Positions 41,717-49,276 of a stretch of DNA of 64,000 nt are shown here, in pieces. The stretch spans positions 256,001 to 320,000 of the forward strand of contig OZ219788.1 in NCBI GenBank assembly GCA_964291285.2, given 5' to 3'. The translations under genes and the position numbers were made by a program. Source of the stretch: Alphaproteobacteria bacterium. Its GTDB lineage: Bacteria > Pseudomonadota > Alphaproteobacteria > Bin95. Each line of letters starts with the position of its first letter. Position 1 is the stretch's first letter. The notes under the pieces were generated by a model, which worked only from the letters and a program-made list of their open reading frames with translations, searched no databases and had not been told where the DNA came from.

Positions 41717-44700
41717 ATACCAGCGGGCATAGTTCAGAACCCATTGGCCCATTTTCGGGTTCCGATGGAGGCGATGCGTTCTGGTTGTGAGACGAGATTG
41801 TTCCAGGCCTGGCAGCAGTGATCGAGTATGTCGTCGTAGTTCTGGAAGACGCGGTTCGAGAGCCAATTTTCGCGCATGAACTGCCAGACATTCTCGACGG
41901 GATTGAGCTCGGGGGACCGGGGCGGGAGCGGCATCAGGGTTATGTTGTCGGGGACTTTGAGGGCCGGGGATGTGTGCCATCCGGCCCGGTCGAGCATGAC
42001 GAGGGCATGGGCTCCGGGTTCAACGGTGAGGGCGACCTCGGCGAGGTGGGCGTTGAGTGCCTCCGTGTTGGCGTGGGGCATGACGAGGCCGGCGGCCTTG
42101 CCCTTCTGCGGGCATATGGCGCCGAAGATGTAGGCCGAGATGGTTCTCTGGTCCTTGGGCGCTGACGGTCGGGTGCCGCGTTTAGCCCATCGCCGGGTGA
42201 TCTTGTTCTTCTGCCCGACGCGCGCCTCGTCCTGCCACCAGACTTCGACCTCGACGCCGTCGCCGAGTGCAGCGCGGATCTCCTTCAGGCGGTCGGGGAA
42301 GTTTTTTTGAACCCTGCCAGCGCGGCTTCGTCCTGGGCATAGTGGCGCGGGCGCGCAGAGAGCTTGGCCCAACTTGAACAGTCGGTGTCGATTTTTGCCG
42401 GGCGCGGTTTCGCCAAGTTGTTGAAATGATTGGATAGTGAGGTGATGATTGGCGCGGGTTGAGAAAAATGTAGTGAAACATTTTTGCTGATTTGGCCTTG
42501 TTTTCTTGATTGGTCGATATCGAAGACATACAACGCGGTCATGTTCGTGCGCGAAACGACCGCCCGGGGCCACCGCTATCTCTACCTCGTGGAGAGCGTG
42601 CGCGAGGGCAAGCGGGTGCGCCAGCGCACGATCCGCGCGCTCGGCCGCAAGGACGTGTTGCAGGCGAGCGGGGAGCTGGACCGTCTGATCGCGTCCCTGG
42701 CGCGCCATTCGGAGCGGTCCGTGGTGCTGGAGGACATGGAGGCGGGCGCGCTGGCCTGCGTGCGGGTCGGCGGTCCGCTGCTGTTCGGTCGGCTGTGGGA
42801 TCGGCTGGGCGTGGGCGCTGTCGTGAAGGAGCTTCTGGACGGTCGCGGCTTCGGGTTCGCCGTCGAGCGGGCGGTGTTTGTGAGCGTTCTGCACCGTCTG
42901 TTCGTGTCGGGTTCGGACCGGTCCTGCGAGAAGTGGATGGCCGACTACGCGATCGAGGGGATCGAGGGGTTGCGGCTTCATCAGCTGTATCGGGCGATGG
43001 CCTGGCTCGGGGAGGAGCTGGAGGCGCCGGCGGAAGGCGCGCTTGCGCCGCGCTGCGTGAAGGACGGGATCGAGGAGCGTCTGTTCGAGCACAGGCGGGA
43101 CCTGTTCACCGACCTGTCTGTGGTGTTCATGGACACCACGACGCTGTCGTTCCACGGCGCGGGCGGCGAGACGCTGGGCGCGCACGGCTACTCGAAGGAC
43201 CATCGCCCGGACTTGCGCCAGATGGTTCTGGCGGTGGTGCTGGACGGCGAGGGCCGGCCTGTGTGCACGGAGATGCTGCCGGGCAACACGGCCGACACCA
43301 GGGTGCTGCTGCCGATCGTGGACCGTCTTCGGTCACGCTTCGGGATCGGTCGTGTGTGCGTGGTGGCGGACCGGGGGATGATCTCGGCGGCGACGATAGC
43401 GGCGCTGGAAGAGCGGGGGCTGGACTACATCCTGGGCGCGCGCGAGCGGCGCACGAAGGTGGTCCGCGAGGTGGTGCTGAAGGACACGAAGCCCTTTGTG
43501 CCGCTGCTCCTCAAGCGTCCGCGCGGCGAGACGCAGCTGTTCGTGAAGGAAGTCACGGTGGGCGGCGCGCGCTACATCGTGTGCCGCAACGAGGCGGAAG
43601 CACAGAAGGACCGCGCCGACCGGCAGGCCGTGGTGGACGGCCTCCAGCGCCGCCTTGCGGACGGCGAGAAAGCGCTGATCGGCAACAGCGCCTACCGGCG
43701 TTATCTGCGCCGCACGGGCGCGGGCAAGGCGTTCGAGATCGACGCCGGCAAGCTCGCCGAGGAGGCCCGCTTCGACGGCATCTTCGTGCTGCGCACCAAC
43801 GCCGGCATGACGCCGCTCAATGCCGTGCTCCGCTACCGGGAGCTGCTCACGGTGGAAGACCTGTTCCGCCGGGCGAAGGCCCAGTTGCGCACCCGCCCGA
43901 TCTACCACTCCTGCGACGCCGCGATCCGCGGCCACGTCTTCTGCTCCTTCCTCGCGCTCGTCCTCCAGAAGGAACTGGCCGACCGCTGCGCCGCCGCCAA
44001 CGTCAACGTCGAATGGGACGACCTGATCCGCGATCTCGACCGCCTGCAAGAGGCCACCATCGAGAAGGACGGCAAGCGCATCACCACCCGCACCCATGTC
44101 GAGGGCCAGGTCGGAAAGGTCTTCCAGGCCGTCGGCATCGCGCTGCCGCCGAACTGGCGCGAACACAAAGCCTGACCGTCCCCAAAATCAACGAAATGTA
44201 GTGGGTACACCCGGCGATGCCGGTGTAACTCCCTGTTCTATCGAATACTTTTAATCGTCACTGTTGAAGTTGGGCTTGGCGTAGCCCATCCGGCGCAACT
44301 CCCGCCCGACCGTCGTCTCCGCCAACGAGATGCCGAACTGCTCGCTGAGCCATGCCGCCAGGTCGCAGCGCCGCCACCGCACCACGCCGTGGATCGCCGG
44401 GTCCGGACCGCTCTCCACAACCGCCGCCAGCGCCGCGCGCTGCTCCCCGTTCAACTTGCGCGGCGGACCTGAGGCCTTGCGATCCTTCAATCCCTCCGGG
44501 CCTTCCGCGTTGAAGCGAAGAACCCAGTCCCGGATGATCTGCAAGCCCACCCCCGCAAAACGCGCCGCATCCGAACGACGGTAACCGTCGTAAATCACCG
44601 CAAGCGCAAGAAGGCGACGGTTCTGCGAACCATACCGGCTCCGCTGCGCCAAGCCGCGCAACTGCGCCGCATCAAAATCCTCCCTCAAGGGGATTGCTGC

Positions 44701-44796
44701 CCTCATAACGACCCTCCAATCGCAGAATCGCTATTGAGCCAGAACTCGATAACCTTGGGAATCCCCTCAATGAGTCTCAACCCTCAACCGCTGGTA
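41717..44796 (-). mobile_element. IS630-family copy 2 (both ends present; orfA interrupted by IS1634)
   Basis: TACCAGCGG ends, TA duplication, TTCAAAAAAAC frameshift site, WQDEAR, DRAGWH, SPELNPVE. Confidence 0.93.
42368..44274 (+). mobile_element. IS1634-family element A, copy 2 (1907 bp; transposase 42541..44175 intact)
   Basis: CCCAACTT ends; CTTGG duplication. Confidence 0.95.
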
Positions 44797-45877: not shown

Positions 45878-48367
45878 CAGGGCGAATTAATTGTCTGCCT
45901 TTGGGCCATGTTGAGGTGGGGTCCGGGGTGGCTATTTTTTTCTTGATATGGCAGTGTGCCGGTCATGGCGAGGTTTCTGTTTGCGGGTGTTTGGGTTGAT
46001 CTTCGCGCGGTCACGGTGCGCCCGACCTGGGGGGCACGGGAGCACCGGCGCTGGGACGATTTGGTAGCGGCGCACCACTATCTGCGGTTCCACGGCATCA
46101 TCGGCAAGGGTCTGCGCCATGTCGCGGTTCATGGCGAGGCCTGGCTTGCCCTGGTTGGCTGGCAGCCTGGAGCGTTCAAGGTGGGAGCGCGGGACCGCTG
46201 GATCGGGTGGTCGGCGGAGCAGCAGTTCCGTCGCCTGCATCTGGTTGCCAACAACTCGCGCTTTGTCATCCTGACGCCTGAGCGGGTTCCCAACCTTGCC
46301 TCGCGGGTGCTGGGGCTGAGCGTGCGGCGGCTGTCGCAGGACCTGCGGGCGGCGCATGGCTATCCGGCTGTTGTGGCGGAGACGTTTGTGGACGTCTCGC
46401 GCTTCGCCGGCACCTGCTACCGCGCGGCCAACTGGCGCTCTTTGGGTCTGACGCGCGGCTTTGCCCGCGAGCCCGGAGGGGTGGCGCGCTGGCGTCACCA
46501 CGGCCAGCCCAAGGAGGTCTTCGTGTTCGAACTGACACACGGCGCCCCCGAGGCGCTGAGCCATCCCGAGATACCGGCAGACTGGAACGCTGAGCAGCAC
46601 ACCGAGCCGATGGCGGCGCCCCGGCTGCGCAGCCTGTTCGAGTGTTTGGGCGAGGTGCCCGAATACCGCCATGCCCGGGGCAAGCGCTATGCGCTCACCA
46701 CCATTCTGACGCTGGCCGTTGCCGCCCGGCTTGCCGGATACCGGGGTGTGAACGCCTTCGCCCAGTTCGCCGCCCTGCTCTCCCAGAAGCAACTCAAGGC
46801 GGTGGGCGCCTTCTGGAGCCCATCCAGGCAGTGCTACACGCCGCCGGCGGTCACCACCTTCCACAACATCCTCGCCGCCCTGCCGCCACAGACCCTGGAC
46901 AATGCCATCGGCCAGTGGGCCGGACAGCACAGCAGTGCGCACGCGCCTGTGGCCATGGACGGAAAGGATTTGCGCGGTGCCTCGAAGCAGAGCGAAGACC
47001 GGCGCAGGAGGATGGTCGCTGCGGTGGCGCATGACACCGGCGTGGTCCTCGGGCAGGTCGAAGTCAGCTCCAAAAGCAACGAAATCCCGGCCGTGCGCGA
47101 ACTCTCCAGCGGTCTCGACCTCACAGGCCGGATCGTCACCATCGATGCGATGCACGCCCAGCACGAGACCGCGCGTTGCCTGCTCGAACGCCGTGCCGAC
47201 TACGTGGTCAGCGCGGTGAAGGGCAACCAGCAGACCATCCTCGAAGACCTCAAGGCGATCGACTTCAGCGATGCGCCCTGGCACGAAACCGTCGACAAGG
47301 GCCATGGTCGCATTGAGCGCCGACGCTGCGCCGTCGTCGACCTCTGCGCTGCCGAGTGGGACGGCTACGCCCACCTTCACGGGCGCCGCCAGGCAATGCG
47401 CATGGAACGCGAGCGCAAGATGCTCAAAACCGGCAAGCGCAGCATCGAGGTCACCTGGAGCCTGACGTCGCTTGGCGCAGAGCGAGCCGGCCCCAAGGAG
47501 CTTCTCGATCTGGTGCGCAACCACTGGCACATTGAGAACCGTGTGCACTATGTGCGTGACTTCACCTATGACGAAGACCGTTGCCGGGCATATGTGCGCC
47601 ACCTGCCCGGAAATCTGGCCTGCTTGAGCAACGCGGCCATCGCTATCGTGCGCTGCGACGGACGCTTCCGATATGTACCCGAGGCCAACCGGCACTACGC
47701 CGCCCGCGCCCAAGAGGCCCTCGACGCGATTATGATCGCGCCCAGAGGCTGATACCCCACCCCCCACCGCAATACAGGCTCGGGCCGAAGAACGGCGCAG
47801 CAAAACAACTGCGCCCGTCGAGGACGAAAACACTGGACCGCGGCATCAAGAAACCACCATGACGGCGGCCAGAAACGTCTGGGGTTCCCCAAAACCTTCA
47901 TTGTCGGGCGGGTCGGCCACCCCGTATCATGAAAACAGGTGCCGGCCGCGCGGGCGGGACTTCGGGCTTTTACGGGGTTGCCTACCGGTCAGGGTCCGCA
48001 AGACGGGCGCCGCAGATGGCGAGTATCGGACGCCTCGGGAGCAGTGCTTTGGCGGGGAGGTTTTTTTTGCGCCCGATCCCCAACAATTTTCACGGCAAAA
48101 CCTTCATTGTCGGGCGGGTCGGCCACCCCGTATCATGAAAACAGGTGCCGGCCGCGCGGGCGGGACTTCGGGCTTTTACGGGGTTGCCTACCGGTCAGGG
48201 TCCGCAAGACGGGCGCCGCAGATGGCGAGTATCGGACGCCTCGGGAGCAGTGCTTTGGCGGGGAGGTTTTTTTTGCGCCCGATCCCCAACAATTTTCACG
48301 GCAAACACCGGCAGCCAGACCGACATCACTCAGACAAAGCCCGCGGTTCGACTAAAAATTTTCCCTG
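45878..48367 (+). mobile_element. ISAs1-family element with DUF4338-transposase fusion (CDS 45965..47752)
   Basis: Ends CAGGGCGAATT / AATTTTCCCTG. N-terminal HHYL, RDRWIGW, NNSRFVIL, NLASRVL, ETFVD, GTCYRAANW; C-terminal DGKDLR, KSNEIP, DAMH, KGNQ, HWHIEN. Confidence 0.9.
47890..48305 (+). repeat. Two identical tandem 206-bp units bounded by CAAA; candidate non-autonomous IS110-type element/ncRNA
   Basis: CAAA at 47890, 48096 and 48302 (period 206). Each unit has TTGTCG-18-TATCAT, a T8 run and a terminal TTTCACGGCAAA. Confidence 0.9.
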
Positions 48368-48374
48368 CGGAACC

Positions 48375-49276
48375 CCCTGATCGGCGATCAGGGGATTCCT
48401 CCGGGAGGCGTGTGCGCTGTTTGGAAGTTCTTTCTGAGCAAGGCATTGCGGAGGGTCTGGATTTTTCTTACCCCGTCAGGATGGCTGATTTCGGGGGTTT
48501 TTGCGGTTTGGAGGGAAAGGTTTTGTGGATTTCCACCCCATGGCCGTGCGCGGGCTGGTTTTCGGGCGCGTCGCGTTGAGGCGCGGGACTGAGTAGAAGG
48601 TGTCGCCATCGGGCCTGCGGCCCTTGTTCCATCCACCGGTGCTGGTTGGGAGAACGTGATGGCGACAGCGGAGAAGTTACCGTTTTCGTGGCGGTCTGTC
48701 GAAGGTTTTCCGGATCTTGCGCGGTTGCGTGTGGTGCTGGAGGTGCTTCCGGACGAGGAGGTTGTGGCAGCGCTTGAGGCGGGTCGCGGGCGGAACGACT
48801 ATCCGGTGCGGGCGATGTGGCGTGCGTTGATCGCGGGGATCGTGTTCCGGCACGCCTCGATGCAGTCGCTTCTGCGGGAGCTGGGCCGCAACCCGGCGCT
48901 TCTGGAGATTTGCGGTTTCGAGGCGCTGCCCTTGCAGGGCGCGCCGGTGGTGGCGCTTTGCGCGGGGCGGGTGGTGAGGTATCCGGCGCCGTTGCGCTCG
49001 ACGGTGCCGGGCGCCTGGAACTTCTCGCGGTTCCTGGGGCGCGTGGTGCGCCTTGAGGACGAGCGCGGCCTTGTGTCGGGGATGATCGGGCGTCTGCGCG
49101 CCTCGCTGTTCGAGGAGTTGCCGGACTTCGGTCGCCATCTCGGGTATGACGGCAAGGCGGTGGCGAGCCACTCGACGGGCCGGGTTGCCGGGGCCAGGGG
49201 GCAGACCTCGGACCCCGATGCGGACTGGGGCAGGCACGAGACGGGCGGGGTGAACGCGAAGACCGGCGCGGTGTAA
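48375..49276 (+). mobile_element. 5' half of a DUF772/IS1182-like IS (transposase 48659..49276, truncated)
   Basis: DLARLRVVLEVLPDE, GRNDYPVRAMWRA, LLRELGRNP, YDGK, DPDADWG. Putative end CCCTGATCGGCGA also occurs at 14810. Confidence 0.75.

Follow-up and report, generated by a model that had tools for sequence, protein, structure and literature searches.

What are two identical units of 206 bp, standing head to tail and without any transposase gene of their own, doing inside a bacterial insertion sequence (IS)? The pair lies at 47890-48305 of a stretch of 64,000 nt (termed the window below) that covers positions 256,001-320,000 on the forward strand of contig OZ219788.1 from an Alphaproteobacteria bacterium (GCA_964291285.2). 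The initial annotation, made from the sequence of the window, described the units as self-expressing bridge-RNA mini-elements of the IS110 family, that is, as RNA-only elements that borrow a recombinase in trans, build arrays and hitchhike inside an IS of the ISAs1 family. We traced the unit through the window's own genome (G000; 6.1 Mb in 5 contigs, C1-C5, with 68% G+C) and through related genomes, and conclude that the units are very probably no bridge-RNA elements, and are probably instead a non-autonomous derivative of an IS110-family element that arose by internal deletion, resembles a miniature inverted-repeat transposable element (MITE) and hitchhikes in an ISAs1-like IS.

Tandem Repeats Finder reports the doublet as the sole array in the region, a perfect tandem with a period of 206, 2.0 copies, 100% matches, 0 indels and a score of 832. 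CAAA stands at all three junctions (47890-47893, 48096-48099 and 48302-48305), as first described, and each unit carries the promoter-like site TTGTCG-18-TATCAT (47901-47930 and 48107-48136), for which a consensus scan gave 2 sites against 0.1 expected from 50 shuffles. The T8 run (48061-48068 in unit 1, 48267-48274 in unit 2) and the end said to be common with an IS110 remnant were found as well: the 11-mer TTTCACGGCAA occurs three times in the window with at most 1 mismatch, twice as the end of a unit and once on the minus strand (14938-14948), where it is the right end of an IS110 fragment. Of five tested open reading frames (ORFs) that cross the units, none has a Pfam match (E<=0.1), in agreement with the claim that no credible ORF or transposase is present, and as the unit length is not divisible by 3, units 1 and 2 are read in different frames. 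The features of the doublet are the following.

47890..48095, plus strand: unit 1 in the phase of Tandem Repeats Finder, beginning CAAA and ending ...TTTTCACGG; probable non-autonomous IS110 derivative
48096..48301, plus strand: unit 2, 100% identical to unit 1
48302..48305, plus strand: third CAAA, where the right end of unit 2 meets the ISAs1-like IS; contains the core (CAAAA in empty sites)
47890..47944, plus strand: left-end-derived segment, homologous to positions 1-~55 of the parent IS left end
47901..47930, plus strand: predicted sigma-70-like promoter TTGTCG-18-TATCAT, with the -10 region as the best conserved part across species
47930-47935, plus strand: left subterminal inverted repeat TGAAAA, within the left-end-derived segment and alongside the promoter-like site
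47950..47999 (unit 2: 48156-48205), plus strand: long imperfect hairpin with conserved loop UUUUACGGGGUU, predicted from an alifold consensus, covariance model R1 and comparison with locus L049
48028..48068, plus strand: predicted terminator-like hairpin, CCUC...GAGG, and then T8 (48061-48068); repeated 206 bp downstream in unit 2
48061..48095, plus strand: right-end-derived terminal segment, ending CACGG
48087-48092, plus strand: right subterminal repeat TTTTCA

The core of promoter, hairpin and terminator would yield an RNA of ~130 nt, which by its homologies would be derived from the right end of the parent and would be no bridge RNA. The terminator-like hairpin was missed by the consensus scan owing to its loop-size rule, and the T run ranges from T4 to T8 in other unit copies. 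A GC-rich, stem-forming stretch had also been pointed out, and a 135-nt stretch does fold at -52 kcal/mol, but its z-score is +0.78 and 152 of 200 shuffles fold equally well or better, so that in a genome of 68% G+C this character is no evidence of structure. In the alifold consensus of 19 units, 6 of the 34 predicted pairs show a compensatory change, and with 85% column identity the family varies too little for a structure to be proven in this way.

A BLAST search of the unit against G000 returned the dispersed copies that had been predicted, in total 39 matches: 16 at 100% identity, 1 at 98%, 17 of at least 185 nt at 93-97%, and 5 fragments. The units have 13 distinct left junctions, across which the interior stays 93-100% identical, and CAA flanks every full-length copy on both sides. 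Two subfamilies can be told apart by their left ends, CAAAACCTTCATTG and CAAACGTCCATTGCC. Apart from the doublets in ISAs1 copies there is an independent one at C3:1834781-1835193, and the order in C3:1834521-1835193 is unit, unit, CAA, ~22 nt, the 3' end of a recombinase gene, and a right end. Many of the G000 copies adjoin genes of other mobile elements, among them IS21 IstA/IstB, DDE_Tnp_1_4 transposases and phage-type integrases.

Beyond this genome, the unit family was found in 6 of 37 genomes of the order (G000 included), all from one genus; it was not found in 20 genomes of the order's other two genera, and BLAST alone detects units in 5 of 41 genomes. Outside the order, units occur at two loci of metagenome-assembled genomes (MAGs), L044 and L049, and on one metagenome contig, which carries a unit of the type seen in genome G010 and was the 1 match to a degenerate hairpin pattern; an exact 26-nt pattern gave 0 matches among the metagenome contigs, and a plasmid collection gave no unit match. 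No synteny of unit loci was found between genomes; compared with its counterpart in G000, the G010b unit locus is longer by ~1.1 kb. As a side observation, an insertion of 5.7 kb, accompanied by the 9-bp duplication GACGCCTCG, divides one unit of G000 into C3:1837582-1837727 and C3:1843393-1843460 (2 of the 5 fragments), and the ends of this insertion resemble those of the IS256-like element by which the IS left end in L044 is cut as well.

Probable derivation of the unit from an IS110-family parent

The IS110 fragment of the window shares its end with the units, and further pieces of the same cognate element are scattered in G000.

14938..15712, minus strand: cognate IS110-family fragment, comprising the C-terminal 203 aa of the recombinase (15104-15712) and a right end of ~165 bp finishing TTTCACGGCAA at 14938

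A twin copy is present on C5 together with two shorter 3' pieces elsewhere in the genome, and C2:1199944-1201141 holds the N-terminal 290 aa and the left end, cut by another IS. Like the unit, this element begins CAAAACCTTCATGG (left end, C2:1199944) and finishes TTTCACGGCAA (right end). In G000 we found fragments only and no intact cognate recombinase; with this gene broken, the units are probably immobile on their own now. Two other IS110-family elements, present as 13 identical copies in G000 and as 7 copies in G010, were considered as mobilisers and rejected, as their ends are unrelated to those of the unit. The 13-copy element (e.g. C1:248452-249357) seems in all cases to sit within the same ~70-nt repeated sequence, with a partly conserved upstream flank.

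Relatives of the parent were collected by scanning one-per-species genomes with the N-terminal recombinase fragment; 110 were found and 79 loci, at 61-97% identity, were kept. Most of these are intact, with a length of ~1.77 kb, a recombinase of 415-428 aa, a left end of ~357 bp and a right end of ~160 bp. Over the 79 loci the right end of the parent ISs reads ...CACGG CAA, and (N)CAA/AA precedes their start, with a few variants (CAT, TAA, CAG). In 10 full-length loci, nhmmer aligns a hidden Markov model (HMM) of the unit with the initial ~55 nt of the left end (E between 1.9e-7 and 1.3e-4), which upholds the homology to IS110 left ends that had been proposed, and an HMM of the right end matches the last ~35 nt of the units (E 0.006-0.12). 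Between these segments, the hairpin at 47950..47999 has a homologue in the parent, in the 3' untranslated part of its right end. For 13 of 22 loci, covariance model R1, built from the units, finds the hairpin at one and the same place in the right end, with matches that are individually weak (E 0.025-3.2). At L049, where a unit and an IS reside together, the unit aligns with the left end of that IS (positions 1-49) and with its right-end hairpin (29-72) at a score of 26 each, and none of 200 shuffles reaches either. The subterminal inverted repeats covary as well: the unit has TGAAAA/TTTTCA where most ISs have TGAAACAG/CTGTTTCA and L121 has TGAATATGCT/AGCATATTCA.

From these matches the unit appears to keep ~55 nt of the left end, the right-end hairpin, a diverged stretch and the last ~35 nt of the right end; it would thus have both recombination ends and neither the recombinase nor the bridge-RNA loops. 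We call it MITE-like as it has no recombinase gene, has ends homologous to those of an IS together with the parent's core, lacks a target duplication of the DDE type, and occupies unrelated sites, with empty sites present in the ISAs1-like IS. The CAA flanks had also led us to consider IS200/IS605, IS91 and MITEs with terminal inverted repeats; these readings were dropped as both ends matched an IS110-type IS, and no search for Y1/Y2 transposases was made.

Several results speak against this derivation or leave a part of it unexplained. For G000's own pair, the unit interior and the right end are not significantly similar (Smith-Waterman; 91 of 300 shuffles as good), and the homology of interior and right end is weak, depending on the L049 intermediate and on the weak but positionally consistent matches of the covariance model. 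Positions 121-175 of the unit are marginally similar to the 5' part of the parent bridge-RNA region (18 of 300 shuffles as good), so that a different deletion history is possible. No close relative (E<=1e-30) of the C-terminal recombinase fragment was found in the 36 other genomes of the family, and the unit-bearing G001 and G008 have no IS110-family recombinase at all; past mobilisation in the other unit-bearing genomes of the genus is inferred only. Compared in pairs between lineages, the units have an identity of 0.8-0.92 over positions 31-75 and 91-135 and of 0.5-0.7 at the ends, and a centre better conserved than the ends would not be explained by the passive decay of a MITE. Finally, the junctions of the doublet in the ISAs1 copies count 4 (left), 4 (middle) and 3 (right) A's against 4 in the empty sites; two simple integrations would give this count only from a target that originally had 3 A's, or after slippage of the run.

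The conserved centre is also what would be expected if the unit were an old small-RNA cassette of the genus, its core kept for a use of the RNA by the host or the element, from which an IS110-type element captured the hairpin and the ends, or which shares both with the IS by descent from an older element. The restriction to one genus, with two unit-bearing genomes free of IS110-family recombinases, agrees with this idea, as does the -10 box, which is conserved across lineages and reads TATAAT in G008. However, the loci lack the synteny of a resident cassette (as the ~1.1 kb extra at G010b illustrates), the copies lie in IS-rich junk and carry the subterminal repeats and core of an IS, and full-length ISs of several unrelated MAG lineages have this hairpin in their right ends. 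We consider this origin unlikely, and keep to the derivation from an IS110-family parent by internal deletion.

Guides of the parent bridge RNA and their absence from the unit

If the unit ran on its own bridge RNA, as initially claimed, it should hold what guides the parent. We mapped the parent bridge RNA from 15 aligned left ends by covariation between guides and flanks. The left end has an outer stem, GGCGGAGGCGGGG/CCCCGCCTCCACC, of 12-13 bp with compatible changes. In a segment reading ...CCCGA-NNNN-AAAC-UGCUUCC, the NNNN repeats the four letters that precede the element at its own left junction: agreement with the own junction averages 3.6 of 4 variable positions over the 15 elements, compared with 1.21 in cross-pairs (n=206). 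Another segment, GCGGCAAA/GCAGCAAA, tracks the right end, which is CACGGCAA or CACAGCAA/CGCAGCAA, in elements with CGGCAA or CAGCAA right ends. Covariation with the left junction and with the right end marks these two segments as left-target and left-donor guides, and the parent bridge RNA is accordingly placed, as a prediction from the alignment, at left-end positions ~115-330. In this clade the left-target guide comprises ~4 nt plus AA(AC), and the left-donor guide reads CGGCAAA (L041-L122 relatives); right-side guides were not located in the aligned left ends. The parent left end also repeats its own first 50 nt internally (CAAAAC...CACCCCGT twice).

As the left-end part of the unit stops at ~55, the bridge-RNA segment is not included in it. 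An HMM of this segment has a sole match in the genome, at C2:1200026-1200208 within the broken IS (E 1.8e-50), and still matches none of the 30 unit sequences when filters are off and the threshold is E<=100. Consequently both the recombinase and the bridge RNA would be needed in trans. The proposal of an RNA-only element with a borrowed recombinase is therefore right in that there is no transposase, and wrong in that the unit has no bridge RNA of its own.

It is very unlikely, then, that the unit is a self-expressing bridge-RNA or half-bridge-RNA mini-element whose ~130-nt RNA guides its own ends and target to a recombinase supplied in trans. Such an element would account for a promoter-like site upstream of a structured region that ends in a T run, for a centre more conserved than the ends, for the marginal similarity of positions 121-175 to the bridge-RNA region noted above, and for 6-7-mers that match the ISAs1 flank and the unit's own ends in the same sense or antisense: GGGGTT, AGGTTTT and, in the copies outside ISAs1, TCACGG. 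The guide-bearing segment of the parent is missing from all 30 units searched, however, and with an interior that hardly changes over 13 left junctions, nothing in the unit covaries with the target. The short internal matches that had been pointed out do not behave as guides: 6-9-mers matching flanks or ends do occur in the units (k-mer search, 8 units), without covariation between the subfamilies, and TCACGG forms part of a predicted stem and has mutated in the copies within ISAs1. The T-run segment, which is complementary to CAAAACC, was considered as a right-donor guide and rejected, as subfamily B, whose left end is CAAACGTCC, keeps GGTTTTG beside the T run. The fold is no better than that of shuffles, and a search of Rfam models found no family match, with nothing near any gathering score for the region or for three full-length ISs, although Rfam 15 possibly holds no bridge-RNA family. 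Guide covariation, which is clear in the parent, and homology to the bridge RNA of a related IS were thus both looked for in the unit and not found.

The preferred reading, a MITE-like derivative served in trans, leads to a simple scheme in which the cognate IS would supply recombinase and bridge RNA, and the unit would excise as a circle and integrate at the AA/CAA core; circle excision and transposition of the unit are proposed from the structure of its copies. The targets fit such a scheme. All five G010 units and the single units of G008 and G012 are preceded by CATGAC, and the guide of L061-type ISs is ATGAC-AAAAC, which supports the units having used a bridge RNA in trans. In G000, 8 of 13 junctions have C directly before CAA, a weak fit to the local IS guide ...GCC-AAAAC.

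Separately, the G010 units (L031, L035, L037, L039 and L040, ~1100-1440) adjoin a dispersed repeat of 200-350 nt with CATGAC motifs. This repeat has dozens of copies, at 70-80% identity, in G000, and is probably a target of the IS, similar in kind to repetitive extragenic palindromes.

A further idea concerns the RNA that the unit is predicted to make. The conserved core (promoter, right-end-derived hairpin with loop UACGGGGU, terminator) might encode a trans-acting RNA of the IS110 system that binds the recombinase or pairs with ACCCCGUA of the bridge RNA; the doublet, in which the donor junction is rebuilt in linear form, would then give off unit circles while retaining one copy. We regard this as rather unlikely. 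Whole-length duplexes of the unit RNA with the parent left-end transcript (RNAduplex) carry no information for or against it, as 34 of 40 mononucleotide shuffles are equally good in the sense and 26 of 40 in the antisense orientation. Were the idea true, the mini-element would compete for or modulate RNA-guided recombination, and the unit would live as a parasite, with an RNA of its own, on an RNA-guided transposon, ISAs1 giving it a second tier of mobility.

With regard to the loop itself, UACGGGGU (47972-47979) is the exact complement of ACCCCGUA (47922-47929), just upstream of the unit's -10 box. ACCCCGUA is also present in the parent's bridge-RNA region (G000 C2:~1200115), and an 8-mer match of such kind may be chance.

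Passive copying by an ISAs1-like host and the origin of the arrays

The doublet lies in the 3' non-coding tail of a larger element that belongs to another IS family.

45878..48367, plus strand: host ISAs1-like IS with ends CAGGG.../...CCCTG, the doublet lying 62 bp from its right end
45956-47752, plus strand: ISAs1-like transposase ORF of 598 aa, with a DruA-like N-terminus, DDE_Tnp_1_assoc and DDE_Tnp_1

ISAs1-family elements have a transposase with DDE_Tnp_1 and DDE_Tnp_1_assoc domains, terminal inverted repeats and a target duplication of ~8-10 bp, and their transposases are usually shorter than 598 aa. The host element has both Pfam domains (PF13808 and PF01609), CAGGG/CCCTG ends and, in 3 copies, duplications of 9-10 bp; the extra DruA-like domain at its N-terminus is PF14236 (E 2e-19).

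The left-flank sequence of this IS occurs in 12 copies in G000, of which 8 contain the doublet, one (C1:343501-343706) contains a single unit and 3 are empty. Hitchhiking inside ISAs1 is thereby established. The empty copies at C2:235262, C2:684942 and C3:1450129, which are 99.1-99.7% identical, read ...ggggttccc CAAAA caccggcagcc... with nothing between, so the unit is no integral part of every copy, and the empty-site check that had been suggested came out in favour of insertion. All 16 units of 100% identity are inside ISAs1 copies, and this variant was found nowhere else in G000; the number of these units therefore comes from transposition of ISAs1 and from no movement of their own. One integration put a unit into the 3' non-coding tail of the ISAs1-like IS, which then passively copied the doublet to 8 loci. 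By this count, 17 of the 35 complete or partial unit copies are owed to ISAs1 transposition.

As to the doublet, we suggest that a second unit integrated exactly at the junction of the resident copy, where the joined ends would offer a half-matched, donor-like site; the competing account is local duplication. Array building, one of the properties first ascribed to the units, is seen in G000 and in other genomes, and head-to-tail joints are common in this IS110 clade. Whole ISs stand in tandem at L065, L066, L073, L075, L082, L084 and L122 (two MAGs), and right ends are duplicated with a joint at AA over 147 bp in L052 (2899-3056) and over 15 bp in L104 (2898-2923). At L044 an IS right end is joined via CAA to a subfamily-B unit, with a subfamily-A unit 28 bp further. 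Heterologous joints of this kind are impossible by local duplication and need an insertion exactly at a resident junction. That the doublet is a plain local tandem duplication by slippage or unequal exchange, or an assembly artefact, without any site-specific recombination, is hardly credible: the units are indeed 100% identical in 7 of the 8 ISAs1 doublets, but the repeat boundaries coincide with the recombination ends of the element at all three junctions, the left unit at C1:1142680-1143091 differs from its partner at 4 positions, all toward the family consensus, there is a second, independent doublet on C3, and duplication cannot make the joint of IS right end and unit in L044. The occurrence in G000 of 8 doublets, one of them non-identical, and of one single-unit copy also argues, indirectly, against a systematic assembly artefact.

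Another locus looks like a tandem array of a different IS110-family element, with three copies in G010 at C2:1364305, 1366164 and 1368000 (L149, L152) that are 1859 and 1836 bp apart.

Known counterparts and the surroundings of the locus

The closest precedent appears to be MITEPpu9/ssr9 of ISPpu9, an IS110-family element of Pseudomonas putida KT2440, and by comparison of their layouts the unit seems to be a further case of the same kind. MITEPpu9 is described as transposase-free with near-copies of the left and right boxes of the IS; the module lies downstream of the IS, solo and in tandem, its small-RNA gene ssr9 is dispensable for transposition, and circles of ssr9 only were detected experimentally (PMC12288879). 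The unit is likewise transposase-free, with IS-like ends, an invariant core at both ends, and solo and tandem copies. Even the layout A'-ssr9-B'-'tnp-B reported from P. putida, in which the module is followed by a 3' fragment of the transposase gene and a right box (PMC12288879), is repeated at C3:1834521-1835193. As far as that description goes, the differences are several. IS lineage and host class are not the same, and the core is AA/CAA in the unit compared with AG in MITEPpu9. The RNA part of the unit comes from a right-end hairpin, whereas ssr9 is a sequence complementary to a left-end antisense RNA. The unit is nested in and amplified by an unrelated ISAs1-like IS while its cognate IS is broken in G000, and it persists with a conserved core in genomes without the cognate IS. 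Circles were demonstrated by experiment for MITEPpu9, whereas the unit is known from sequence.

The parent itself fits the IS110/IS621 bridge RNA (Durrant et al., 2024; PMC11208160) and the seekRNA (PMC11187229) as described there, having a left-end non-coding RNA with covarying guides. Its 5' guide is identical to the left target plus core, and its second guide to the right end plus core, as in the IS110/IS621 system. Compared with the IS621 reported there, the parent has a long right end (~160 bp) and subterminal repeats of 6-10 bp, and only ~4-5 target nt beyond the core would be read. The ends of the unit are the donor sequences that a bridge RNA of this type would read, and the unit has no guide-bearing RNA. 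A full-text literature search found no description of a solo mobile element consisting of a bridge RNA only, and the phrases "orphan" or "standalone bridge RNA" were absent from the papers that it listed (20 of 97).

Arrays have recently been surveyed in a preprint, which found tandems both of non-coding units (n=468) and of modules (n=437) at IS110 loci and attributes them to half-matched recognition of the left donor only (Hu et al., 2026; 10.64898/2026.08.14.744561). The doublet, the joints of IS and unit, the IS-IS tandems and the right-end duplications of 15 bp and 147 bp described here are of the same sort. In the preprint, however, the arrays as presented adjoin a transposase module, whereas the array of the window stands solo, inside an IS of another family that has dispersed it.

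Classical MITEs, such as MITEPye1 of the IS1182 family, are short, non-coding and multi-copy, derive from IS ends and use a transposase in trans (PMC11578231). The unit is also short, non-coding, multi-copy and derived from IS ends. It differs from the type so described in having neither terminal inverted repeats nor a duplication of the DDE type, in its asymmetric ends, which would be recombined site-specifically at a shared core, and in a centre that is better conserved than the ends.

If the predicted RNA is made, the unit would be the second independent transposase-free offshoot of an IS110 element that bears a small RNA, after MITEPpu9, and would come from an alphaproteobacterial lineage; such an offshoot can nest in, and be amplified by, an unrelated IS. 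The clade of the parent IS is now defined by its ends, its subterminal repeats and a predicted bridge RNA with a short target guide, and the head-to-tail joints common in it bear on models of half-matched bridge recombination. For annotation, we recommend that such units be labelled IS110-derived MITEs and no bridge-RNA genes.

Some minor observations concern the host IS and its neighbours. The 10-bp flanks of ISAs1 copies are swapped between loci, three-way among C4:303890, C1:343706 and C1:515238 and reciprocally between C3:1399148 and C2:537008, which points to recombination between IS copies that rearranges the replicons. The ends of the window copy also took part in this flank comparison.

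45878 and 48367: ends of the ISAs1 copy of the window that were involved in the flank comparison

The neighbourhood is rich in IS remains: upstream of the ISAs1 copy lies an N-terminal transposase fragment with a helix-turn-helix domain only (HTH_32/HTH_29; 44251-44706, minus strand), and directly downstream lies a DUF772 transposase fragment (48656-49276, plus strand).

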